Source of the DNA: a virus
Lineage: Duplodnaviria > Heunggongvirae > Uroviricota > Caudoviricetes
Strand: one strand, 5' to 3'
Length of the DNA stretch: 40,402 bases
Virus record (IMG/VR): IMGVR_UViG_2529292883_000006
Part shown: piece by piece, positions 5,965 through 40,402 of the stretch
How the letters are laid out: the number at the start of each line of letters is the position of its first letter
Numbering within the stretch: the stretch's first letter is position 1
Notes under the pieces: model-generated
Database searches by the model: none
The model's input: the letters and a program-made list of their open reading frames with translations, nothing else
What the model was told of the DNA's origin: nothing
Program-made: the position numbers and the translations under genes

Positions 5965-6168
5965 ATGAACAACAAGACATGGTTTCGTGCATATGCATGG
6001 GCGCTGGTATGCGTCCTCGTCTCTCTCATTCTGTATGTAGGGGTACTCCCCCGAATGATTTCATCAGACAGCTCCTTCCTGGTATTGCTGGGCATTTTCA
6101 TTGCCATGCTGTACCCGGCAGGCGTTGTTCGCCTTTTCAGTAAGTACATCAAGGAAATTAAACAATGA
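5965..6168 (+). CDS. Small two-TM membrane protein (67 aa), coupled to the downstream SPFH gene
   Basis: Translation has two hydrophobic helices (WALVCVLVSLILYVGVL; FLVLLGIFIAMLY). AAGGG RBS. Its stop overlaps the ATG of the next gene. Confidence 0.5.
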   Translation: MNNKTWFRAYAWALVCVLVSLILYVGVLPRMISSDSSFLVLLGIFIAMLYPAGVVRLFSKYIKEIKQ

Positions 6169-6995
6169 AGAAATTCAGACTCTTTCAGATTCTCCCGCTT
6201 TTTGCCGCCATCCTGCTGGTTGGCTGCGATCGCGTTGAGCCAGGTAATGTGGGCATCAAAGTCAACAAGCTGGGCGACGACAAAGGCGTTGGCGAAGTGG
6301 TTGGCGTTGGTCGCTACTGGACTGGCTGGAATACCGAGGTTTACATCTTCCCGACCTTCAAACAAATGAAGACCTACGATGAGCCGTTCAGCTTTCAGAT
6401 GAGTGACGGCACAACCATCGGCTATCACATCGGTGTGGCCTACAAGGTTGATCCATCCAAAGTTACTACAGTGTTTCAGACCTACCGCAAAGGCGTGGAT
6501 GACATTACCGACACTGACCTGCGCCAGAAGATCGCCGACGCACTCAACCGACTGGCCAGCAAAATGACCACCGATAAATTTATCGACGGTGGCAAGTCTG
6601 AACTGCTGGATTCAGCACTTAAAGACATTCAGGCAGAAATGACACCTATCGGCATTCAGGTAATGAGCCTCTCTTATGTCGGTAAACCGGAATACCCACC
6701 AACCGTTATCGACAGCATTAATGCCAAAGTCACGGCAAACCAGAAAACTCTGCAACGCGAGCAGGAAGTCAAGCAACGCGAAGCAGAAGCCAACATGCTG
6801 CGCGCAGAAGCTGCCGGACAAGCTGATGCCATTCGCACAAAAGCCCAGGCTGAAGCCGACGCCATTCGTTTGCGCGGTGAAGCTCTGCGTCAGAATCCCG
6901 GCGTTATGGAGCTGGAAGCGATTAACAAATGGAACGGCACGCTGCCGCAATACATGACCAGTAATACCGCTGTTCCGTTTGTTCCGGTGAAGTAA
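6165..6995 (+). CDS. SPFH/Band-7 (prohibitin/stomatin-like) domain lipoprotein
   Basis: Signal peptide with lipobox (LLVGC). The C-terminal Ala/Glu-rich coiled-coil stretch (EQEVKQREAEANMLRAEAAGQADAIRTKAQAEADAIR) is typical of SPFH proteins. Confidence 0.75.
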   Translation: MKKFRLFQILPLFAAILLVGCDRVEPGNVGIKVNKLGDDKGVGEVVGVGRYWTGWNTEVYIFPTFKQMKTYDEPFSFQMSDGTTIGYHIGVAYKVDPSKVTTVFQTYRKGVDDITDTDLRQKIADALNRLASKMTTDKFIDGGKSELLDSALKDIQAEMTPIGIQVMSLSYVGKPEYPPTVIDSINAKVTANQKTLQREQEVKQREAEANMLRAEAAGQADAIRTKAQAEADAIRLRGEALRQNPGVMELEAINKWNGTLPQYMTSNTAVPFVPVK

Positions 6996-7046: not shown

Positions 7047-7362
7047 GTATGCCGTTCTCACAAAAAAACCGCTTGCCATGCCGCAATCAGTCAGGTTACA
7101 TTTCCGCTGCACCTCATAAAACGGGTGCCGGGATTTCCACCCCGCTGACAACTACAGCGCACAACCGCGCCAGCGGTTTTTTTGTGCGTACTGTATCGCC
7201 ACGTCTTTTTCGCACACGAATTATGGTGGGGCGTATGGGGCCGACTTCGGTCGGGCCGGGTTCTGTAGTTGCCGGTTGTGGAAACCCTGTACGTCTCACC
7301 ACCCCGAGTTTTCCACCTCTGGATGGTGAGTTTTCAAAACTTGCAACTACAGAGGCCACACC

Positions 7363-7593
7363 ATGGCAAACCGCAAACATCACCGCGCTATCGCGGAGCG
7401 TCGTCACATCCAGACTGAAATCGATCGCAGACTCACCCGCGCTGCACACATCGCCTTTATCATGCAATCCAACACATTGCACAGACTCAACAGCACTATT
7501 TCAGCCGACTACTGCGCCGCTGTATTCAGCTATCTGGCGGAAGACCTCCTGTCTCTTCAGGATCTCATCCAGCAGCAAAACAAACTCCATTAA
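7363..7593 (+). CDS. Hypothetical small protein (76 aa), weakly supported
   Basis: ORF preceded by ~300 bp of structured non-coding sequence and followed by a stem-loop at 7603-7636. Weak RBS. Confidence 0.3.
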   Translation: MANRKHHRAIAERRHIQTEIDRRLTRAAHIAFIMQSNTLHRLNSTISADYCAAVFSYLAEDLLSLQDLIQQQNKLH

Positions 7594-7687
7594 TTCCTGT
7601 TCCAGGCCTCTCCTGCGCTTTGCAGCGGGAGGCCTGCGCACACCTATAACAAGGAGATTAGCTATGGCTAATGTTTTTGTTTACTCA

Positions 7688-8101
7688 TTATTTAAAGGGG
7701 GATTCGTCACCCCCTTCAAAATCATCATCGTCAAAATAATCATCGAAATCATCATCATCTTCTTCGGGCGCAGGAGGGTTTACAGGAATATCAACAAGTT
7801 TCATTTTTCCACTTGCTATATCAGCCTTTACTTTTGGCAAGGCAAAAACCGCGTCATATCCGCGAAAAACCTCCCCATCACCAAGAATATTGGTGAGCCC
7901 GAGTCTTTTCAAAAACTCACAAATAGAAACGTAATCTCCAAGCCCAGAACCGGTAATAGCTCGGTAAATAAATCCATTATGAAAAAGAGCAACTGGATAG
8001 GGAGCTGCTCCCCACGGATCTCGAGGACGCCCCTCAAGCCACAGACTTATTTTTTCATCGTAATCAGGTCGTTCGCACTCTCTTGTATATCGATGTTTCA
8101 T
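7688..8101 (-). CDS. Hypothetical protein with strongly acidic C-terminal tail (EEDDDDFDDYFDDDDFEGGDE), opposite orientation to the early operon
   Basis: 137-aa ORF on the minus strand with its own upstream region (8102-8199). Composition is unlike the overlapping frames. Confidence 0.6.
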   Translation of the reverse strand: MKHRYTRECERPDYDEKISLWLEGRPRDPWGAAPYPVALFHNGFIYRAITGSGLGDYVSICEFLKRLGLTNILGDGEVFRGYDAVFALPKVKADIASGKMKLVDIPVNPPAPEEDDDDFDDYFDDDDFEGGDESPFK

Positions 8102-8199
8102 TGGTTTTTTCTCTCTTTTTACATGGAAATAAATAATTTACGAAACACAACCACTAACCGCCAAGCCCCTAATGAAAATTTATACAAGAGGGGAGTTGT

Positions 8200-8589
8200 A
8201 TGATTGACCATCATGACTTCGTAAAATGGGTGCGCCCACAGGACACCCGTCTGGCTCCCGTTCTCCAGGGATTATTTGATCTCTACATCCGTGGTCGTGA
8301 CAACAGAGCGCGCACTACAAAACCGGAGAATGCGGACACCCTTTATTTCACAGTAGACGACTGCTACCGCGTGGACTTCACACCACACGGACTGGCGTTG
8401 CACTGCCTGACACCGCACGGCGAATCACTGCTGGCGTATTACGACTCCCCGGCCTCCGTATTTGCGGCAATGCTGGCGCATCGCACTGCTGGCGGGTGTG
8501 CCTCGCTGAGTGAATACACCGCTGAGTTTAACCGCCTTTCCGCCCTCTTCTCACAGGAGTGGCAGCGCGTGACGGGATACCAGCCATGA
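8200..8589 (+). CDS. Hypothetical protein upstream of and coupled to gene A
   Basis: RBS agaggggag before the ATG. Its stop overlaps the gene A ATG (ATGA at 8586-8589). Confidence 0.55.
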   Translation: MIDHHDFVKWVRPQDTRLAPVLQGLFDLYIRGRDNRARTTKPENADTLYFTVDDCYRVDFTPHGLALHCLTPHGESLLAYYDSPASVFAAMLAHRTAGGCASLSEYTAEFNRLSALFSQEWQRVTGYQP

Positions 8590-11426
8590 GTGAGTTTGCA
8601 TGGAGCTGGAATGAACCACGGCCAGCCATTGATCCGGCCAGATTTACGGAGCGCAGGCAGGAAACTGAAACCGACCTGCAACGCGCCATCCGTTACTACC
8701 TTGAGGCAGACAAAAAGGCCCAGGAAGAACAGGAAGCGAAAGAGGAAGCCTTTTTCGCACAATCCGCCATGGGTAAAAAACTCATGGCATCCCTTGAGGA
8801 AGCCGGACAGCGTGAAGAGCTGGCACAAAGCATCATCAGCAAGCGTCAGGCAACAGAACAAGACCCGGTGGCCCGTGCTTTTGCCACACTGAAGGTGCTT
8901 CCCGTTTATCTGCGTGAACCACTGAGCCGCCGCCTCTCTTTTTTACGTAAGAAGCAGGAATCTGACCGCCAGAAAGGCAAAAAGAGTCGACCAGCAGAGG
9001 GCTACGCACGCGGAACCCTGCGCAAAATATTCGAACGTCTGGATCGCACTGACGGGCGCTGGCTGACACCGGGTTATCGCTCCCTTGCCGGACGCGAACG
9101 CCTGGACGATTTGCTTTACCTGCCGCAGCTCAACAAACACCAGATACAGACGCTGGCCACCATGACGGCGGCGATGTTCAGCAGCACCTTCGAAAAACTC
9201 TGCGATGGCTTTGGCGCGACCGATGGCGAACTGACCATGGATGTAACGCTGAAGGCGTATCAGATGCTGGCCCGCATGGCGTTACACCTGCACGCCATGC
9301 CTCCACATTATGACGCACTGACAACAGACAAAGACCAGAGGAACGAACCGGACACGGAGCTGCTGCCGGGCGCAATCCTTCGCCTGACCTGTGCAGAATG
9401 GTGGAAACGCAAACTGTGGCTGTTACGTTGCGAGTGGAGAGAAGAACAACTCCGCGCCGCCTGTCTGGTTTCCAGAAAAACATCGCCCTATCTGAGCCAG
9501 GACGCGTTAAGCGAGTTTCGCGCACAGCGCGAGAAAACACGCGATTTCCTGAAAAGTTTCATGCTGGAAAATGAAGACGGGTTCACGATTGATCTCGAGA
9601 CGGTGTATTACGCGGGAGTAAGTAACCCGGTTCACCGTAAGGCAGAAATGATGGCCACCATGAAGGGGCTGGAACTTCTGGCCGAAGCCCGTGGCGACAA
9701 AGCGGTGTTTCTGACTGTCACCTGCCCGTCAAAATACCACGCCACAACAGAGAACGGTCATCCGAATCCCAAATGGAACGGGGCCACCATGCGCGACTCC
9801 AGCGATTACCTGGTTAACACGTTTTTTGCGGCGGTCCGCAAAAAACTGAACCGCGACGGTCTTCGCTGGTATGGCATCCGCACGGTGGAGCCTCACCATG
9901 ACGGCACCGTGCACTGGCATATGATGGTCTTTGCTCATCCGGAAGAAATCGACAGCATCGTGGCCATCACCCGCGATATTGCCATTCAGGAAGACCGCCA
10001 CGAGCTGGGCAATGATATTACTCCGCGCTTTAAGGCAGAGTACGTCGACGGTTCGAAAGGTACGCCGACCAGCTACATCGCCACCTACATCGGAAAGAAC
10101 CTGGACAGCCGCGCCGTGGATGGCATTGACCCGAAAACAGGCAAACCGCGCATCGACGACGAATCAGGAAAGACGATGGCAGAAAGCGTGGAACGCGCCA
10201 TCGGCTGGGCGCGCCTTCACCGGGTCCGCCAGTTCCAGTTCTTTGGCATCCCTTCCCGTCAGGTGTGGCGTGAACTGCGCCGCCTTGCCTGTCAGATGGC
10301 ACGTAACCCACAGGGACCGCAACGTCTGGAAAATGACGCAATGGATGCGGTTCTTGCTGCCGCTGATGCCGGATGTTTTGCCACCTACATAGAGAAACAG
10401 GGCGGCGTGCTTGTTCCACGCAAAGACTACCTGATTCGCACCGCCTACGACCTCGCAGATGAACTGAACGATTACGGCGAGCAGAGTGTACAGATTTACG
10501 GGATCTGGTCGCCGCTCATCGGGGAGTCTTCCCGCGTGTGCACGCACCCGGATAACTGGAAGCTGGTAAGACGTAAACCGGAAGCGGAAGACAGCGCCCG
10601 CGAAAATGGTTTTGACCTTCAGGGCGGCCCTGCCGCCCCTTGGACTCGTGGCAATAACTGTCCCCGTGTACAGGAAACGGACAACAACGGGACAGAACAG
10701 CCGGAAGAACGGCCAGCACCGTGGCCGCAGCTCCCTGACGGCGTTGAAGTGAACGAATGGATGCGCTCACTGAAACGGCACGAACGCCGGGCGCTGATGC
10801 GTTCGCTGCGTGACAAACAGGCAAAAAACAGCAGTGATGAAATGCAGAGCTGGACACAGAGCCACAAACAGCCGCGACCTTTGCCTGATAACCACGAGTT
10901 ACTCGCTAAAGAATGGCGGGAGTCTGCCGAATCTCTCGGCCTGCATATCGGTGAACAGCAGATGCAGCACCTGTTACGGGGCGGCAGCCTGTACGTTGAC
11001 GGCAGCATCATTGCACCGCAGGGATTTGAAATTGTACGCAAACCGGATACCCGCCCGGACAGCCGAATCACGCAGCTCTGGCAACGCCTGAGCCGTAATC
11101 ACGGCGTAAGCAGCACGGAGATCCGCCATAACCCGGTCGCCGGCTATCTGGAGCAGCTGGGGGCATCAGACCCCGAAGCCGCCGCACGCCTGGCATCCAC
11201 ACTTCAGCAGGACCAGAACACCATGAAAACCCCCGTTACCGTGCTTTCTGACATGTTGCGCGCCATCCGTGACGCAGAGCACGCACAGAGAATCAGTGAA
11301 ACCACTGAACGCGCCCACCGCAAAGCAGACCTGCTGCGGGGTAGCCTGACCAGTGGAAACAAAAAACAGACAGAAACGGGATTCACAAATCCCGTAAATG
11401 AGCAAAAAACGTGCCGCGATATATGA
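8586..11426 (+). CDS. Rolling-circle replication initiator (P2 gpA-like HUH endonuclease), 946 aa
   Basis: HUH motif (GTVHWHMMVF) and paired catalytic tyrosines (SYIATYIGK). Position corresponds to P2 gene A. The start at 8586 is chosen from translational coupling. Confidence 0.85.
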   Translation: MSEFAWSWNEPRPAIDPARFTERRQETETDLQRAIRYYLEADKKAQEEQEAKEEAFFAQSAMGKKLMASLEEAGQREELAQSIISKRQATEQDPVARAFATLKVLPVYLREPLSRRLSFLRKKQESDRQKGKKSRPAEGYARGTLRKIFERLDRTDGRWLTPGYRSLAGRERLDDLLYLPQLNKHQIQTLATMTAAMFSSTFEKLCDGFGATDGELTMDVTLKAYQMLARMALHLHAMPPHYDALTTDKDQRNEPDTELLPGAILRLTCAEWWKRKLWLLRCEWREEQLRAACLVSRKTSPYLSQDALSEFRAQREKTRDFLKSFMLENEDGFTIDLETVYYAGVSNPVHRKAEMMATMKGLELLAEARGDKAVFLTVTCPSKYHATTENGHPNPKWNGATMRDSSDYLVNTFFAAVRKKLNRDGLRWYGIRTVEPHHDGTVHWHMMVFAHPEEIDSIVAITRDIAIQEDRHELGNDITPRFKAEYVDGSKGTPTSYIATYIGKNLDSRAVDGIDPKTGKPRIDDESGKTMAESVERAIGWARLHRVRQFQFFGIPSRQVWRELRRLACQMARNPQGPQRLENDAMDAVLAAADAGCFATYIEKQGGVLVPRKDYLIRTAYDLADELNDYGEQSVQIYGIWSPLIGESSRVCTHPDNWKLVRRKPEAEDSARENGFDLQGGPAAPWTRGNNCPRVQETDNNGTEQPEERPAPWPQLPDGVEVNEWMRSLKRHERRALMRSLRDKQAKNSSDEMQSWTQSHKQPRPLPDNHELLAKEWRESAESLGLHIGEQQMQHLLRGGSLYVDGSIIAPQGFEIVRKPDTRPDSRITQLWQRLSRNHGVSSTEIRHNPVAGYLEQLGASDPEAAARLASTLQQDQNTMKTPVTVLSDMLRAIRDAEHAQRISETTERAHRKADLLRGSLTSGNKKQTETGFTNPVNEQKTCRDI

Positions 11427-11471
11427 AGCGCGCACAAAACAGGCAAAAGCGGGATTTAAAAATCCTGTAAA
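11374..11471. repeat. Two ~25-bp imperfect palindromic repeats (aaacgggattcacaaatcccgtaaa / aagcgggatttaaaaatcctgtaaa); candidate centromere (parC-like) or origin-associated site
   Basis: Two copies ~70 bp apart. The first lies in the last codons of gene A, the second in the A-parM intergenic region. Each has internal dyad symmetry. Confidence 0.4.
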
Positions 11472-11502
11472 CGATTAATTAATCAACATAAGGAAAAGCG
11501 AC

Positions 11503-12462
11503 ATGAAAATTTGTATCGACGACGGCTCCACCAACATCAAGCTGGCATGGACTGAGAACGGCGAACGCCGCAACGCCATCAGCCCGAACAGCTTCAAGTC
11601 GGAATGGTCTGCGCCGTTCGGTGGCACGCAGCCCGCGAACTACATGCTTGATGGCGTGCGCTATGGTTTTGATCCGGTCAGCGATCGCTTTGTCCAGACG
11701 ACCGACACGCAATACCAGTACAGCGATGTGAATGTCATCGCCGTTCATCACGCGCTGGTCAAATCAGGCATCACGCCACAGGAGGTGGATGTGGTTGTCA
11801 CCCTGCCACTGAGCGAGTATTTCGACACAAACGCACAACCGGACATGGCCAACATCAACCGCAAAAAAGCGAACGTTATGCGCCCGGTGGAGTACCAGAA
11901 CGGCGAGGCATTCACTATCCGTAACGTGCGGGTTATGCCTGAATCCATTCCGGCTGGCTTTAAAGCACTGGCTGACATGAGTCCGTTTGAATCCCTGCTG
12001 ATTGTGGATTTGGGCGGAACCACGCTGGATGTGGCAAAGGTTCAGGGGCAACTGGCAGGTATCAGCCAGGTGTTTTGCGATCCACACGTAGGCGTTTCTC
12101 TGATGGCCGATGCCGTGCTGTCGGTGATGGCCACCAACGGTATGCGCACCAGTCACCACATCGCCAATACCATTATCGAACATCGCCACGATGAAGCCTG
12201 GCTGCGCCAGCACATCCACAATGACGCGCATTACGCCAGTCTGATGGCAGTTATTCGTGAAAAGGAGGAAACACTGAAACAACGCGTGATCCGCGCGCTG
12301 GCGGGTTTTTCGGGTTACGGGCGGGTGATGGTTGTCGGTGGAGGAGCGGAGATTGTGGCACCCGCTATCCGCGAAGCCTGCGGAGTTAATGCGACTTTCA
12401 TCGCGGACGGGGTGCCACAGTTTGCTCTGGTTAATGGGCTGTACGCAATGGACAAGGAGTAA
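11503..12462 (+). CDS. parM: Actin-like segregation ATPase, ParM/StbA family
   Basis: 319 aa. Translation begins MKICIDDGSTNIKLAW and carries ISPNSFK, YSDVNVIAVHHAL, VMPESIPAG, DLGGTTLD, GGGAE and LVNGLY motifs, which align along the whole length with plasmid R1 ParM as I recall it. Confidence 0.85.
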   Translation: MKICIDDGSTNIKLAWTENGERRNAISPNSFKSEWSAPFGGTQPANYMLDGVRYGFDPVSDRFVQTTDTQYQYSDVNVIAVHHALVKSGITPQEVDVVVTLPLSEYFDTNAQPDMANINRKKANVMRPVEYQNGEAFTIRNVRVMPESIPAGFKALADMSPFESLLIVDLGGTTLDVAKVQGQLAGISQVFCDPHVGVSLMADAVLSVMATNGMRTSHHIANTIIEHRHDEAWLRQHIHNDAHYASLMAVIREKEETLKQRVIRALAGFSGYGRVMVVGGGAEIVAPAIREACGVNATFIADGVPQFALVNGLYAMDKE

Positions 12463-12466
12463 ATCA

Positions 12467-12781
12467 ATGACGACACCAACCAGACGGATAAGTTTCTATC
12501 TGAAGCCCGCCGTCGTCAAGAGCGAACGGGAGGCGTGCAGCTACCTCGACAGCCTGCCAGCCTCCGAACGCAGCCGCGCACAACGCGCGGCTTTTCTGGC
12601 CGGACTGGCTCTTATAAAACGCACCCCCGCGTTGGCGTATTCGCTGGCAGAATGGTCAGAAGACGAAATACGGATGCCACCGCTACCAGTACAGCCTGAA
12701 AAACCGGCGCAACCAGCAGCAGACAGCGCCCCCCATATGCAGCAGGTGAAAAAGAATATTCAGGCGTTTTTCCCGAAGTGA
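12467..12781 (+). CDS. parR: ParR/StbB-like centromere-binding adaptor
   Basis: 104 aa immediately downstream of parM with an AGGAG RBS. The N-terminus RISFYLKP...SERSRAQRAAFLAGLAL resembles the R1 ParR ribbon-helix-helix region. Confidence 0.7.
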   Translation: MTTPTRRISFYLKPAVVKSEREACSYLDSLPASERSRAQRAAFLAGLALIKRTPALAYSLAEWSEDEIRMPPLPVQPEKPAQPAADSAPHMQQVKKNIQAFFPK

Positions 12782-12795
12782 AAACAGGAGTAACT

Positions 12796-13083
12796 ATGTC
12801 CACCATTACCAAAGAATGGTTACAACGTAAAATCACAGAGTTTAAATCGTGGCGCGAAGACATCCCGTTCGGTCTTGATGAAGACGATCACAATATGTTA
12901 ATCGCACTGGAAATCGCACTTGCATCACTGGAAGCAGAGCCAGTGGCATGGATGCACGCAAATAATCCTATTGGAATACCGGCGATAACAAGAAGTAAAG
13001 ATGTTGCAGACAGCTGGCGCTCTAAGGGATGGAATGTATTGCCTCTTTATTCACTGACCCGCTCCATCAATTTATGCCATTAA
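12796..13083 (+). CDS. Hypothetical small protein (95 aa), lower GC than surrounding genes
   Basis: ORF with AGGAG RBS 5 nt before the ATG. Coupled to the downstream Rrf2 gene. Confidence 0.5.
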   Translation: MSTITKEWLQRKITEFKSWREDIPFGLDEDDHNMLIALEIALASLEAEPVAWMHANNPIGIPAITRSKDVADSWRSKGWNVLPLYSLTRSINLCH

Positions 13084-13094
13084 TGGAAGTAATC

Positions 13095-13454
13095 ATGATG
13101 AAAGATAATTCCGGAAGCCAGCGTGCATCAGTTGCAGTTATGGTAATGATTAAATTTGTGAAACAGTACACCGGAAAGCCAATCTCGCTCCGGCAATTAA
13201 GCAAAGAAACCGTTTCACTGTCATATCTGGAGCAAATATTCAGATATTTACGGGAAAGTAGCCTGGTAAAAGCCACACGCGGCCCGGGTGGTGGATATAT
13301 CCCAACAAAAGAAAATTACAGTGTTGGTGATATTGTCCGGGCAATGAAATGTTCCGGATTATATACACAGCACGTTATTCTGGCTGCACTGGATAATATT
13401 TCTTTAACCAGCCTGCAGGAAGACACAAATTATCAGTTGTCTGCCATTAAATAA
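13095..13454 (+). CDS. Rrf2-family (IscR/NsrR-like) winged-helix transcriptional regulator
   Basis: Segment SLSYLEQIFRYLRESSLVKATRGPGGGYIPTKENYSVGDIVRAM matches the Rrf2 HTH signature (compare IscR [33 protein letters not shown]). AT-rich codon usage. Confidence 0.8.
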   Translation: MMKDNSGSQRASVAVMVMIKFVKQYTGKPISLRQLSKETVSLSYLEQIFRYLRESSLVKATRGPGGGYIPTKENYSVGDIVRAMKCSGLYTQHVILAALDNISLTSLQEDTNYQLSAIK

Positions 13455-13457
13455 GAA

Positions 13458-13502
13458 AACCCGGAACGGGTGCGCAAATTCTTTGTGCGCCCGTTCCGGG
13501 TT
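13458..13502. terminator. Bidirectional stem-loop terminator between convergent genes
   Basis: 16-bp stem cccggaacgggtgcgca / tgcgcccgttccggg. T-run on the minus-strand side. Confidence 0.55.
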
Positions 13503-13522: not shown

Positions 13523-13780
13523 CTATCCGGCCTGCAACAACTCCAGAGCCATTTGTTTTTCTTCCGGACGCATCCGCTCAATCAACAGCTTTAACACACC
13601 ATTCTCCAGCCCGCTGGGCACCAGTGTGTGCGAGTAGGTCAGATTCATCACCCAGGTATGTCCGCACTCGAGACGGGTGCAACGGTAATAAACATCTGCA
13701 AAGCGATCATCTTTCCAGAAGGTCTTCTCAATCACTGCGCGTTCACCACAGCAAAAACATCGCGCTTTTTGTCTGCGCAT
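13523..13780 (-). CDS. Ogr/Delta-family zinc-finger late-gene activator (start uncertain, ORF extends to 13849)
   Basis: C-x2-C ... C-x4-C arrangement (CFCCGERA...YYRCTRLECGH) typical of Ogr/B/Delta. It lies directly downstream of the portal gene on the minus strand. Confidence 0.65.
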   Translation of the reverse strand: MRRQKARCFCCGERAVIEKTFWKDDRFADVYYRCTRLECGHTWVMNLTYSHTLVPSGLENGVLKLLIERMRPEEKQMALELLQAG

Positions 13781-13845
13781 TTTCCACCTCCCAGAGCAGC
13801 GTTTTCCTGCAGCTGATTTTACCTGCTCTTTTCGCATGTCGCACA

Positions 13846-14880
13846 TCACTCCGGGGGCTCATCAAATTCAAGAATAAATTTCACCTCCCCCAGTCGCCTG
13901 ATATCCGGGTCACTGTTGATTCCCTCCATAATCAGGCGGCGCATCGGAATAACCTCATCCCTGTAATATGCCTCGCGGGATTTCAGTGGGTCACCAAGCC
14001 CGGCCGTATTTGCGGGAATGATGCCGGCAAGTCCGGGTGGGAAACGGTGCGCAACGAGCTGATCCTGGGCACTGATGGTTTTTATATTCAGGAACTCATC
14101 TTTTGTACCTGAATCCCCGATAGGGATCACCTTAACGCCTTCTTTGTCTCCGCCCGGTATATTGATAAACATGGATTTAAAATTGCCCGCCCCTTTTGAC
14201 GCCTCTATCTTTTTACGGAATTCCGCCTCGAGCTCGGGATCCATGTCCGGGTCAGTGGAATACAGGATATAACCAAGATGTGCGCCGTTCTTGTAATACT
14301 TGCGGCGAAAGCGGGTGGCATCCACATTCAGCATGGCGGATTCCATCCCGTGAATATAATCCGGGACACCGTAAACCTGCTGTTGCGGGTCATAAATGGC
14401 CACGAACACCACTTCGCCTGGCGGGTAAACGAGATCTTCCAGTGCCGCCTGCACAATCACCGTGCCACCCTCGTTGTTACGCCGCAGGTACAGAGAAGGT
14501 AACGTATGCAGGCGCACCACTCGACCGAAGCCATTGCGCACTTTAAGCAACCCCATATCCCCGAATATCAGCAGATTGGTTACTGCTGCCGCCATGGCGG
14601 CGAGTGTCATACCACCACCACCCCGAAAACCCTGCATGATCATATTGACGCGCGCACGCAATACCGCGCCGTGATACGGTGCGATATTGGACAACATGGC
14701 GAGATCCATGCGCTCAATGGGCGGCGTGTACCAGCCGTTATAGCCATCCCAGAGCGAGCCGTAATAACAGCCCCATGCAGCGACCGGTTCCGGGTCACCA
14801 AATTCAATAAAAGTCATTTTGCTGGCTGTTTTTTTTGCCACGCCATCGTGTAACACGGGGTATTTTTTCTTTTTACTCAT
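13846..14880 (-). CDS. Portal protein (P2 gpQ-like)
   Basis: 344 aa, same length and position as P2 Q. Transcribed divergently from the scaffold/capsid genes. Confidence 0.9.
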   Translation of the reverse strand: MSKKKKYPVLHDGVAKKTASKMTFIEFGDPEPVAAWGCYYGSLWDGYNGWYTPPIERMDLAMLSNIAPYHGAVLRARVNMIMQGFRGGGGMTLAAMAAAVTNLLIFGDMGLLKVRNGFGRVVRLHTLPSLYLRRNNEGGTVIVQAALEDLVYPPGEVVFVAIYDPQQQVYGVPDYIHGMESAMLNVDATRFRRKYYKNGAHLGYILYSTDPDMDPELEAEFRKKIEASKGAGNFKSMFINIPGGDKEGVKVIPIGDSGTKDEFLNIKTISAQDQLVAHRFPPGLAGIIPANTAGLGDPLKSREAYYRDEVIPMRRLIMEGINSDPDIRRLGEVKFILEFDEPPE

Positions 14881-16660
14881 CTGACAGGATCCATGTTGAT
14901 TTGCGCTTGTGCTTATAGTTCAGGGGTTCATTACTTGCGGCATGAGCTATGGCAAAGAAGATGTCAGCGTGCCCGGTTTCTTCGCTACGTTCGGCGGTGA
15001 AAGTGACTTTATTGCCGCTGTTGGTGGATTCCTGACGAATGGCCAGGAACGATGCCGGAATATCCGTGGCTTCTTCATCCCACTCAATACGGTTGGCGTA
15101 AATCAGATCCAGCATCTTCATCACCAGGCGGTTTTTGGATTCCACGCTGTAATGAATGGCCACTGTTTCACGGCGGGCAAATCCCTGAACCAGCTCAAAG
15201 ACACCGTAGCCAAGACCGGTGACGTCAATGCCGATAAACGTCATGTTATAGCGTGCTTTAATGCTGCGTATACGCTCTGCCATAAACTGGAATGACATGC
15301 TGCGCCAGTGGTGTTTTTCCAGCACGCGGAATCGTTCTGCCGCAACCAGCGGCGGTGCCAGCACTACAAATGTGGCGTTATCGCCGGAGCGCGCAGGGTC
15401 AAAGCCGCCCCAAACCTCACGGTTACCAAATGGCATGGACTCTTCCGGGTGAAAATCCTCCCACGTACTGACATCAACACCACAACGCACAAGATCATCA
15501 AATTTAAAGACGCTCTCTTTGTCATCCACAAACACACACATAAACAGCATATTGAACGCTGTTTCGTTGTATCGCTCGCGCAGCTCGTTGATGTCAGCAA
15601 GGTTAAAGCCGCCGGCAATGGCATCTTCCAGCGTAACCACATAGCGCCACTGACCATCCGGACATTCACGCCCACCATCGCGCAGCTCATCAAAGGACGG
15701 AAACTCAACCCCTTTTCGTTTCGGATCGCCTTTGCGCCATTCATCGCCAGACCAGAACGGGTAACCCTGGTGTGTTTTGGATGACGGCGTGGAGAAATAG
15801 GTAATGCGCCAGTGTTTATGGGTGGCCATCCCTGACGCCACTTCATTGAGACGGCGAAAACCGGGGATCCACAGGTATTCATCAATATACAGGTGGCCGC
15901 TGTTTGACTGCGCTGTGTTACTGTTGGTCGCCAGAAAATACAGTTCAGCCAGATTACTTAACTTAACCGGATTGCCTTTAATGGGAATGCCAAACTCTGT
16001 TTGTGCAATTTTTACAATATAAGTACGGAACACTTCGGCCTGACGTTTTGATGCCGATAAAAATATCTGTGTGTCGCCGGTTAATACTGCATCTTCAAAT
16101 GCCTCAAACGCGAAGTAATACGTCGCCCCAATCTGGCGGGATTTAAGCAGGTTGCGTACACGGCGGAATTTGTTTTCACGCAGGAGCAACTGGTAAGTAA
16201 ACAACTTTTTCGTAAACGGCTCAAAACTTTCAGCAGTCAGTCCGGAAACGTCATTAGCTTTGCGGGGGCGCTCTTTCTTACCTGCACCTTTTTCTCCGCG
16301 TTCTTCTTTTCCATAACGACCAGACTGGGGAATATCCGCTCCCATTCGTTCAATCTCGGCCATTCGTTCCGTGTGCTTGTTCCTGACCGACATCAGTTTG
16401 ACGTGATGGCCAATCAGGCGATCGAGTTCATCGTGTTCTTCCGGCGTTTTATGATCACGCTCCGCCAGTACAGCGAGACGACGGGCGATAACATCCTCCA
16501 CGCCTTCAGTATTAAGCTGTGTGTACCACTCAAACTTTGTCGCCCAGTAATAAACAATTCGCGGGCTGTTCAGTCCGAGTTTCTTTTGTATTTCTTTTGG
16601 TGTGTGCCTTTTCAGATAGAGCGATTTTGCAGCAGCAATCACCTCATCAGAATACGCCAT
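14873..16660 (-). CDS. Terminase large (ATPase) subunit (P2 gpP-like)
   Basis: 595 aa, upstream of the portal on the same strand. P2-type head-gene arrangement. Confidence 0.9.
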   Translation of the reverse strand: MAYSDEVIAAAKSLYLKRHTPKEIQKKLGLNSPRIVYYWATKFEWYTQLNTEGVEDVIARRLAVLAERDHKTPEEHDELDRLIGHHVKLMSVRNKHTERMAEIERMGADIPQSGRYGKEERGEKGAGKKERPRKANDVSGLTAESFEPFTKKLFTYQLLLRENKFRRVRNLLKSRQIGATYYFAFEAFEDAVLTGDTQIFLSASKRQAEVFRTYIVKIAQTEFGIPIKGNPVKLSNLAELYFLATNSNTAQSNSGHLYIDEYLWIPGFRRLNEVASGMATHKHWRITYFSTPSSKTHQGYPFWSGDEWRKGDPKRKGVEFPSFDELRDGGRECPDGQWRYVVTLEDAIAGGFNLADINELRERYNETAFNMLFMCVFVDDKESVFKFDDLVRCGVDVSTWEDFHPEESMPFGNREVWGGFDPARSGDNATFVVLAPPLVAAERFRVLEKHHWRSMSFQFMAERIRSIKARYNMTFIGIDVTGLGYGVFELVQGFARRETVAIHYSVESKNRLVMKMLDLIYANRIEWDEEATDIPASFLAIRQESTNSGNKVTFTAERSEETGHADIFFAIAHAASNEPLNYKHKRKSTWILSDE

Positions 16661-36593: not shown

Positions 36594-37166
36594 ATGACTA
36601 AATATATTTTTGCTCTTTATTTTATATTATTTGGTAATACGAAACATCTATTCGAATGCTGGAAAGTTGAAGTCATCCGTCGCGATCGATTTTTAATTCA
36701 TCGCCTACTAAGAGAGAAGAGATCACGCTCAAGAAAATACATCTTCTGGTGGAGACTTGCAAATGAAATGTTTATCCATGGCGGGAAATATACAAAAAAA
36801 GCAGCGAAGAAAATCAACCGCAAATTACTCAGTGAATACAGCTGTGATCTTGGTCTAGGGCTGACCGTTGGCAAGGGTCTGACAATTATCCATCACACGG
36901 GCATCGTTGTTACCAGTACGGCAATCATTGGAGAAAATCTGACCATCAGACAAAATACAACCATTGGTCGTAGTCAATCGGATAATGAACACGATAGAAT
37001 AACAATTGGCAATAACGTTGATATTGGCGCCCACTCATTCATTCTGGGCTCTGGTTTTAAAATTGGAGATAATGTCAAGATCGGGGCAATGTCATTTATC
37101 ATGGATGAAATTCCTTCAAACTGTACTTATGTCACCCGGAAAGAATCAAGGATAATATCTAAGTAA
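36594..37166 (+). CDS. Hexapeptide-repeat acetyltransferase (serine O-acetyltransferase / CysE-like left-handed beta-helix)
   Basis: Repeated [LIV]-G-x4 hexapeptides (GLTVGKGLTIIHHTGIVVTSTAIIGENLTI...IGNNVDIGAHSFILGSGFKIGDNVKIGAMSFI). AT-rich relative to the prophage core. Confidence 0.7.
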   Translation: MTKYIFALYFILFGNTKHLFECWKVEVIRRDRFLIHRLLREKRSRSRKYIFWWRLANEMFIHGGKYTKKAAKKINRKLLSEYSCDLGLGLTVGKGLTIIHHTGIVVTSTAIIGENLTIRQNTTIGRSQSDNEHDRITIGNNVDIGAHSFILGSGFKIGDNVKIGAMSFIMDEIPSNCTYVTRKESRIISK

Positions 37167-37897: not shown

Positions 37898-40402
37898 ATG
37901 TCACAAACTATCGACCTGACCCTGTACGGCCTGTCCTGCGGTCACTGCGTTAAACGCGTGAAAGAAAGTCTCGAACAGCGCCCGGATGTGGAACAAGCGG
38001 ATGTGTCTATCACTGAAGCGCACGTTACCGGGACTGCCAGTGCAGAACAGCTGATCGAAACTATCAAACAAGCGGGTTATGACGCATCTGTAAGCCACCC
38101 AAAGGCTAAACCGCTGGCGGAGTCATCAATCCCGTCGGAAGCACTGACAGCGGTTTCTGAGGCGCTTCCGGCAGCGACCGCCGATGACGATGACAGCCAG
38201 CAGTTGCTGCTGAGCGGCATGAGCTGCGCCAGCTGTGTCACCCGCGTACAAAATGCGTTGCAAAGCGTACCGGGCGTCACTCAGGCACGGGTAAACCTGG
38301 CGGAGCGTACTGCGCTGGTGATGGGCAGTGCCTCCCCACAAGATTTAGTGCAGGCGGTGGAAAAAGCGGGCTACGGCGCGGAAGCGATTGAAGATGACGC
38401 GAAACGCCGCGAGCGCCAGCAAGAAACCGCCGTCGCTACGATGAAGCGCTTCCGCTGGCAGGCAATTGTTGCACTGGCGGTGGGTATCCCGGTAATGGTC
38501 TGGGGGATGATCGGCGATAACATGATGGTCACCGCTGACAACCGCAGCCTGTGGTTGGTTATCGGCCTGATAACCCTGGCGGTAATGGTTTTCGCCGGCG
38601 GCCATTTTTACCGCAGTGCATGGAAAAGCCTGCTGAACGGTGCGGCGACGATGGATACGCTGGTGGCGCTGGGTACGGGTGTGGCGTGGCTCTATTCGAT
38701 GAGCGTCAACCTGTGGCCGCAGTGGTTCCCGATGGAAGCGCGGCATCTTTACTATGAAGCCAGTGCGATGATTATCGGTCTGATTAATCTCGGTCATATG
38801 CTGGAAGCGCGCGCACGTCAGCGTTCTTCTAAGGCGCTGGAGAAATTACTCGATTTAACCCCACCGACGGCGCGCCTGGTTACTGACGAAGGTGAAAAAA
38901 GCGTGCCTCTGGCAGAAGTGCAGCCAGGTATGTTGCTGCGCCTGACGACCGGCGACCGCGTGCCAGTAGATGGCGAGATTACCCAGGGCGAAGCATGGCT
39001 GGATGAAGCGATGCTGACGGGCGAACCTATCCCGCAGCAAAAAGGCGAAGGCGATAGCGTCCATGCCGGGACAGTGGTACAGGACGGTAGCGTTCTGTTT
39101 CGCGCCAGTGCGGTTGGCAGCCATACCACGCTATCAAGGATTATTCGTATGGTGCGCCAGGCCCAGAGCAGCAAGCCAGAAATCGGTCAGCTGGCGGATA
39201 AAATCTCAGCCGTATTTGTGCCGGTAGTAGTGGTGATTGCGCTTTTCAGTGCGGCAATCTGGTATTTCTTTGGTCCGGCACCGCAGATTGTCTATACCCT
39301 GGTGATTGCCACCACGGTGCTGATTATTGCCTGTCCGTGTGCGCTGGGGCTGGCGACGCCGATGTCGATTATTTCCGGCGTCGGGCGGGCGGCTGAGTTT
39401 GGCGTGCTGGTGCGGGACGCCGACGCGCTACAACGCGCCAGTACACTCGATACCGTCGTGTTCGATAAAACCGGGACGCTGACCGAAGGGAAGCCGCAGG
39501 TTGTCGCAGTGAAAACATTTGCTGATTTTGACGAAGCGCAGGCGCTGCGTCTGGCGGCGGCACTGGAACAAGGTTCCAGCCATCCGCTGGCGCGGGCGAT
39601 CCTCGATAAAGCAAGCGATATGCAGCTGCCGCAGGTCAACGGTTTCCGCACATTGCGCGGGCTGGGCGTGAGCGGTGAAGCTGAAGGTCATGCGTTATTG
39701 CTGGGCAATCAGGCGCTGTTAAATGACCAGCAAGTTGATACTAAAGCGATTGAAGCAGATATTTCAGCTCAGGCATCGCAAGGGGCAACGCCTGTGCTGC
39801 TGGCGGTTGACGGGAAAGCGGTAGCCCTGCTGGCTGTACGCGATCCGTTGCGTAGTGATAGCGTGGCGGCGCTGCAACGTCTGCATAAAGCGGGATATCG
39901 TCTGGTGATGTTGACCGGGGATAACCCAACCACCGCCAATGCGATCGCCAAAGAAGCCGGGATTGATGAGGTGATAGCCGGGGTGCTGCCAGACGGTAAA
40001 GCCGAAGCGATCAAACGTCTGCAAAGTGAAGGACGTCAGGTGGCAATGGTGGGCGACGGCATTAACGACGCGCCAGCGCTGGCCCAGGCGGATGTCGGCA
40101 TTGCAATGGGCGGCGGCAGTGATGTTGCCATTGAAACCGCGGCGATTACCCTGATGCGCCATAGCCTGATGGGCGTTGCGGATGCGCTCGCTATTTCCCG
40201 CGCAACGCTGCGCAACATGAAGCAGAACCTGCTCGGCGCGTTTATCTACAACAGTATCGGTATTCCGGTCGCCGCCGGTATTTTGTGGCCGTTTACTGGA
40301 ACACTGCTTAACCCGGTAGTTGCCGGAGCGGCAATGGCGCTCTCGTCGATTACCGTAGTGAGTAACGCCAACCGGTTGCTGCGGTTTAAACCGAAGGAAT
40401 AA
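37898..40402 (+). CDS. copA: Copper-exporting P1B-type ATPase CopA
   Basis: 834 aa. Two N-terminal GMxCxxC metal-binding motifs (GLSCGHC, GMSCASC), CPC in the TM domain, DKTGT phosphorylation motif, GDGINDAP. Stop at the window end. Confidence 0.95.

Follow-up and report, generated by a model that had tools for sequence, protein, structure and literature searches.

Why does a phage that integrates into the host chromosome keep a plasmid segregation motor under strong selection? This question is raised by a 40,402-nucleotide stretch of DNA (IMG/VR record IMGVR_UViG_2529292883_000006; the whole stretch is called the window below), a chromosomal segment that holds an integrated P2-like Escherichia coli prophage. 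Genes for an actin-like ATPase (ParM) and its adaptor (ParR) follow the replication gene A of this prophage, and centromere-like (parC-like) repeats stand immediately upstream of parM. Prophages of about one in four sequenced E. coli contain this parMR cassette. The answer would show either a hidden episomal phase of P2-like phages or an actin-like cytoskeleton acting during replication. We favour, with moderate confidence, a genuine functional type II (ParM/ParR/parC) segrosome that would move phage DNA circles, free of the chromosome, once infection or induction has occurred, rather than one that serves a stable plasmid prophage. The cassette itself is a common, annotated and already published backbone feature of P88-like phages and not a discovery.

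A ParM/ParR pair of the R1 family

The parM gene (11503-12462, + strand; ribosome-binding site AAGGA at 11490-11494, + strand) encodes an actin-fold ATPase of 319 amino acids. Two Pfam families, StbA_N (2.3e-82) and the ParM C-terminal domain (1.3e-68), match the protein from end to end, and residues 2-316 align with residues 2-318 of the solved structure of plasmid R1 ParM (1mwk, E=6.7e-93). The two proteins are ~47% identical over their full length, and the four nucleotide-binding and hydrolysis motifs are the same in both: DDGSTN at residues 6-11 (phosphate-1), PESIPAG at 146-152 (the catalytic Glu), DLGGTT at 169-174 (phosphate-2) and GGGAE at 279-283 (adenosine). The parR gene (12467-12781, + strand) lies 4 nucleotides beyond the parM stop codon and encodes a ribbon-helix-helix adaptor of 104 amino acids that is predicted to bind the centromere. 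It matches Pfam Plasmid_stab_B (1.9e-24), and a profile built from ten ParRs hits 2jd3, the structure of pB171 ParR, at 2.9e-15. The predicted folds of both proteins are settled by these sequence matches to solved structures. A model that had seen only the letters of the window (the sequence-only reading) had described a near full-length ParM/StbA-like ATPase and a ParR-like adaptor at these positions. Both assignments held, and ParM proved to be full length.

The C-terminal segment of ParR, KKNIQAFFPK, aligns with KKNAMKLIN of R1 ParR, the segment that binds ParM according to established structural work on R1 (the ParM:ParR-peptide complex, PDB 4a62). The tail of the phage protein is predicted to bind ParM, and the pattern K-x-N-[IA]-x-x-[LF]-F is common to R1 ParR and all phage ParRs compared. 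The E. coli phage ParRs are short (103-104 amino acids) and lack a helix of ~20 amino acids, TTxxxIxxLxSVxP, found in R1 ParR, in the profile that matches pB171 and in the other phage ParRs.

The two genes contrast in their divergence. The parM gene is under strong purifying selection, with ratios of nonsynonymous to synonymous substitution rates (dN/dS) of 0.01-0.10 and proteins that are 98-99.7% identical among related phages; between the window and P88, ParM is 99.7% identical and protein A 87%. At least three parR alleles exist. They are old, 53-63% identical to each other, with synonymous divergence (dS) from ~0.9 to saturation and dN/dS of 0.1-0.4, and the window ParR is only 53% identical to P88 ParR beside a 99%-identical parM. 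The N-terminal DNA-reading strand, TRRISFYLKP, is nevertheless identical across all three alleles.

Centromere-like repeats and expression of the cassette

The two palindromic repeats of ~25 bp that had been noticed before parM are real, and they form the centers of larger direct repeats of 42 nucleotides each. Repeat 1 (11360-11401, + strand) contains the palindrome ACGGGATTCACAAATCCCGT at 11376-11395, composed as ACGGGATT-CACA-AATCCCGT, and repeat 2 (11433-11474, + strand) contains GCGGGATTTAAAAATCCTGT at 11449-11468. Each repeat thus includes one CGGGA-N8-TCCCG palindrome. The repeats are 81% identical, their starts are 73 bp apart (~7 helical turns), and a core of 31 bp (11402-11432, + strand) that includes the gene A stop codon (11424-11426) separates them. 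Repeat 1 is overlapped by the 3' end of gene A and falls within its last ~22 codons, and 76 bp separate the end of gene A at 11426 from parM. The 24-nucleotide site pattern occurs in the window at these two repeats only and gave 0 matches in 100 shuffles.

Comparisons with related elements showed that the CGGGA/TCCCG arms are invariant in seven E. coli and Citrobacter elements, whereas the inner eight bases vary. At the same place, the Plesiomonas relative has two CGGG-N10-CCCG-type repeats with a spacing of 72 bp and the Hafnia relative has similar sites ~72 bp apart; the Serratia and Enterobacter relatives have one different, large inverted repeat. Repeats are therefore conserved upstream of parM although their sequence shifts from lineage to lineage, the pattern expected of a ParR-binding site. 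Co-variation of the ParR allele with the palindrome variant was considered and rejected, the arms being invariant and the inner-base variants independent of ParR type. A hidden R1-like 5+5 array of 11-bp iterons in the 131-bp region was also rejected: the A-tracts look phased, but the 11-bp periodicity (lag-11 autocorrelation) is weak in the window (z=1.1, compared with 3.7 in an R1-type parC).

A consensus scan found no sigma-70 promoter between the repeats in the window or in the Plesiomonas and Hafnia relatives, whereas the same scan recovered the TTGACT-16-TAAACT promoter in the R1-type parC used as a control. The scan for terminators on the + strand likewise found none between gene A and parM. 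Because the cassette has neither a consensus promoter of its own nor a terminator separating it from gene A, we infer that parMR would be transcribed with the early cox-B-A operon. Expression would then be limited to the A-dependent rolling-circle replication that yields free phage circles after infection or induction.

Integrated state and distribution of the cassette

The prophage is bordered on both sides by chromosomal genes, a glutaminase gene on the left (1-669) and a copA-type P-type ATPase gene on the right (37898-40402), and it encodes a tyrosine integrase (938-1975) and a helix-turn-helix repressor (2030-2329). Gene A (8559-11426, + strand) encodes a P2 GPA-type rolling-circle endonuclease (Pfam Phage_GPA, 5.8e-131), and its counterpart in the near-identical prophage of STEC316 has been named 'replication endonuclease' by the annotation pipeline PGAP. 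The placement of the pair directly after gene A in an integrated P2-like prophage, as proposed from the sequence alone, is thereby confirmed.

The cassette is widespread. Among 5,426 complete E. coli genomes, parM has any match in 1,303 (~24%) and a match covered over at least 80% in 1,279, and the window-type gene A is covered to the same extent in 1,320. These similar counts (1,320 vs. 1,279) indicate that gene A and parM travel together, and parMR and the window-type gene A are found together in ~97% of the carrying genomes. The carriers include O157:H7 and ST131 strains. The region is ~95% identical to phages P88, P884B11, 520873, 503458, Citrobacter phiSM, Chuche and others, and PGAP already labels the two products 'plasmid segregation protein ParM' and 'plasmid partitioning/stability family protein'.

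P2-like prophages from four further genera also have the gene order A-parM-parR-[cargo]-(ogr)-portal-terminase. Relative to the window, ParM and protein A are 62% and 56% identical in the Plesiomonas prophage, 62% and 33% in the Hafnia prophage, 58% and 47% in the Serratia prophage, and 54% and 29% in the Enterobacter prophage. In a neighbour-joining tree of 112 ParMs, calculated without bootstrap support values, the five phage ParMs group with their nearest relatives from the database in a single clade, which excludes R1, D6, a Dickeya homologue in an integrative and conjugative element (ICE) and the plasmid sequences. Plasmid ParMs are at most 52% identical to the window ParM, and this distance together with the separate phage clade argues for an old acquisition of the cassette, which appears to have been retained by the phage lineage since. 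The cassette belongs to the backbone that P2-like phages with a P88-like (Xuanwuvirus-type) early/replication arm conserve in that arm.

The survey of related prophages that had been proposed with the sequence-only reading thus found the pair kept after gene A in all four other genera, and it replaces the picture of an unusual insert, in which the pair had first been presented, with that of a lineage-core module. The same reading had named, as one result that would count against it, the pair proving to be common and characterised in P2-like phages, and this came out half true. Common it is, in E. coli and in P88, and it is in print; experimental work on the cassette was not found in the literature searched. 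The P88 and phiSM papers list the cassette genes without studying them, and nothing on the cassette was found in the CP-933T literature.

Role of the cassette

In the segrosome reading, ParR would attach as dimers to the pair of in-phase palindromes that closely precede parM and, through its conserved C-terminal tail, would hold the ends of ParM filaments; ATP-driven polymerisation of ParM would push apart or position the DNA molecules that carry the sites. Such a machine could distribute or position free circles for efficient replication and packaging, and it could ensure that both daughter cells inherit a genome that is excised for a time; serving a stable plasmid prophage would not be its task. 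The positioning of circles, which corresponds to the DNA-positioning role suggested in the sequence-only reading, is favoured because expression seems tied to the early replication operon. In P2, monomer circles from rolling-circle replication are the packaging substrate. A more specific form of the proposal is put forward only tentatively, namely that an R1-type ParMRC has long been retained by an integrating P2-like lineage as a cytoskeleton of the lytic cycle or of a transient episome, where it would be expressed with the replication operon and spread or position the monomer circles, raising the efficiency of replication, packaging or inheritance. If this is true, it would be the first time that an actin-based system for genome positioning was shown in a temperate phage of Gram-negative bacteria, and the cassette is genetically easy to test in E. 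coli.

Several points weigh against this reading. The window has only two palindromic sites compared with the ten iterons of R1, and their 11-bp periodicity is weak; for these two reasons the repeats could be mainly an operator. A weak, activator-dependent or ParR-regulated promoter could have been missed by a simple consensus scan. In addition, one cassette-bearing P88-like genome has been deposited as a circular 'plasmid' of 34.4 kb, a record that fits a plasmid prophage and a transient episome equally well.

A facultative plasmid prophage would persist stably at low copy number, for instance where the host offers no free attachment site. The idea is already published: Rousset et al. 2022 remarked on a 'putative plasmid partitioning system' of P2-like phages, which is exactly the system described here, and suggested that the phages with the cassette are 'maintained as plasmids' (PMC9122126). 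We regard this main rival as unlikely. In its favour, the cassette is closely related to real plasmid partition systems, and a StbA/StbB pair with 48% identity serves the P1-like plasmid prophage D6. The deposited circle, pZ1323PEC0009-2 (NZ_CP148288.1), is a complete P88-like genome of 34,461 bp and also carries hok/gef, a plasmid-type stability gene. However, a circular phage contig can merely reflect spontaneous induction. A sister strain of Z1323PEC0009 has a chromosomal parMR region that is 100% identical to that of pZ1323PEC0009-2 over the 2.1 kb compared. Across the complete E. coli genomes, parM is found at 1,441 chromosomal places and 2 plasmid places (~700:1), a ratio against which the episomal, phage-plasmid-like state suggested by the sequence-only reading fares poorly. 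Similarly, 72,556 plasmid records yielded a single phage-sized circle with the cassette, the other carriers being large replicons or a linear contig ridden with insertion sequences (ISs). All examined elements keep their integrase, and lysogenic repression is expected, from the biology of P2, to shut off the early-operon gene A that replication would need. The extrachromosomal maintenance and independence of integration that define phage-plasmids of the P1, N15, SSU5 and D6 type were not found in the window, where the element has chromosomal flanks and a tyrosine integrase. The Shigella boydii 'plasmid' NZ_CP049283.1 was also considered as an episomal phage and rejected; it is a linear, IS1-ridden contig of 26.7 kb with tail genes.

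The cassette might instead work while the phage is integrated, or have other DNA as its target, either with ParR mainly controlling transcription, of parMR itself or of the neighbouring cargo, or through incompatibility or exclusion directed at co-resident P88-like phages or ParMRC plasmids. Having only two palindromic sites would suit an operator, and the divergent parR alleles beside a 99%-identical parM, with a breakpoint inside parR and alleles that travel with the cargo, would suit either role. Up to three or four such elements occur in one genome, so that incompatibility pressure is conceivable. A pure regulator, however, would not need a full-length ParM with intact ATPase motifs and a dN/dS of 0.01-0.1, and specificity has not obviously diverged, as the TRRISFYLKP strand and the CGGGA/TCCCG arms are the same in all three ParR alleles. 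No PADLOC match was found either, and these roles are considered improbable. Plasmid-type genes are not obviously necessary for an integrating phage, and the cassette could in principle be an inert remnant of an old plasmid-phage recombination with no present function. The strong purifying selection on parM, open reading frames (ORFs) that are intact in ~1,280 genomes, synteny across five genera and the monophyletic clade of phage ParMs leave this reading with hardly any likelihood; the selection and conservation data effectively refute it.

Comparison with known partition systems

The window cassette shares with the ParMRC of R1 and IncF plasmids the order parC-parM-parR, the repeats upstream of parM, a ParR whose ribbon-helix-helix N-terminus is 45% identical over 58 amino acids, and a similar C-terminal ParR tail, in addition to the ParM similarities given above. 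Other features differ. The window cassette is part of a chromosomally integrated phage and has two 42-nucleotide palindrome units in place of 5+5 direct 11-bp iterons; the left half of its putative centromere overlaps the end of gene A, and its core lacks a consensus promoter such as that of R1. Furthermore, the E. coli phage ParR is the short form without the additional helix, and the phage ParMs form a clade of their own. P88 (Xuanwuvirus), Citrobacter phiSM and Chuche have essentially the same ParM and parC region as the window, likewise placed directly after gene A. The window differs from P88 in its parR allele, its downstream cargo and its portal, which is 30% identical to that of P88.

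Two systems of integrated elements resemble the cassette and may serve as precedents for the segrosome reading. The first is AlpC/AlpA/alpS of the Corynebacterium glutamicum prophage CGP3, an early-induced system on which efficient replication of the phage circle depends (PMC4446434). As in the window, an actin-like ATPase and a DNA-binding adaptor are encoded by an integrated prophage, and the sites of the adaptor lie upstream of its own operon (PMC4446434, PMC5539076). The likeness is one of architecture. The host is Gram-positive, AlpC belongs only distantly to the actin-like proteins, and the authors describe AlpA as unrelated to ParR, whereas the window proteins are close members of the R1 family. 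The second is srpMRC of the SXT/R391 ICEs, a type II partition locus on a normally chromosomal element that acts on the excised rolling-circle form and stabilises it while it replicates (PMC4489591). It is expressed with the activation programme of its ICE, and its centromere has only four 13-bp repeats, direct or inverted (PMC4489591). Its element is an ICE and not a phage, and according to its authors R1 ParMR is only a distant relative of SrpM and SrpR, and SrpR has no ParR homology. A chromosomal ICE of Dickeya also has, adjoining TraG/TraU genes, a ParMR pair with 49% identity to the window pair.

The StbA/StbB pair of the P1-like plasmid prophage D6 is, like the window pair, phage-borne, with an R1-family ParM and a ParR partner, and the GenBank note of D6 cites similarity to 'phage P88 StbA'. 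In contrast to the window prophage, the 91-kb D6 is a true plasmid prophage that resides outside the chromosome, and its ParM falls among the plasmid ParMs, outside the P2-like phage clade.

Hotspot cargo and mosaic structure

The position of the pair had been taken for the slot in which P2 carries tin and old, a hotspot for accessory and defence genes. The gpA-gpQ interval is indeed a published P2 hotspot (PMC9122126), whereas parMR does not behave as its cargo: the pair is kept with gene A, and the cargo varies only downstream. Nucleotide identity to P88 stays at 97-100% across parM and as far as codon ~15 of parR and then falls to 78%, 70%, 50% and 42%. The left edge of the hotspot is therefore placed inside parR, at about codon 15, and the variable stretch spans 12510-13500. 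The right border (13523-16660) is formed by genes on the - strand for an ogr/Delta zinc-finger activator (13523-13849), the portal (13846-14880) and the large terminase (14873-16660).

The genes downstream of parR are different in every phage examined. Those of the window are a hypothetical ORF of 96-101 amino acids (12778/12796-13083, + strand; PHROG 660/60) and an Rrf2-family winged-helix regulator (13050/13095-13454, + strand; Pfam Rrf2 3.3e-13, PHROG 24072), a combination common to only 37 complete E. coli genomes. No PADLOC family matched ParM, ParR or these two ORFs at E<=0.01, and a reading of the locus as a defence system was rejected on this absence. In other elements, parR is followed by a HicAB toxin-antitoxin pair (Serratia relative, 7450-8084 of that record) or a KAP-family NTPase (Enterobacter relative, 7411-8757 of that record). 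In pZ1323PEC0009-2, the region at 110-1431, near ogr, encodes a Hok/Gef toxin, a Com-family regulator and a DNA methyltransferase.

Beyond the hotspot, the window portal and terminase are 75% and 76% identical, respectively, to their counterparts in the Plesiomonas prophage, the portal far above its identity to the P88 portal. The prophage is thus a mosaic, in which an early/replication arm with parMR recombines with different structural arms and the junction lies at the hotspot.

Other features of the prophage

Two RNA families scored above their Rfam gathering scores upstream of gene A, an isrK Hfq-binding RNA at 7109-7183 (+ strand, 63.6 bits) and a C4 antisense RNA at 7219-7306 (+ strand, 79.3 bits). 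Together, 7109-7306 is assigned from these matches to an antisense immunity or antirepressor-control module of the P1/P7/P4 type in the early region of the P2-like prophage. The long 'ORF' at 7049-8203 overlaps both RNAs and is probably not a gene. The early region also encodes a SPFH/Band 7 family protein (6165-6995, + strand; Pfam 7.6e-31) and has a 137-amino-acid ORF that ends in a very acidic C-terminus and matches no family (7688-8101, - strand); either could be an accessory gene. A hexapeptide-repeat acyltransferase gene (36594-37166, + strand), close to the right end of the prophage and immediately ahead of the chromosomal copA, may be phage-borne cargo, for serotype conversion or another function, or else host DNA.

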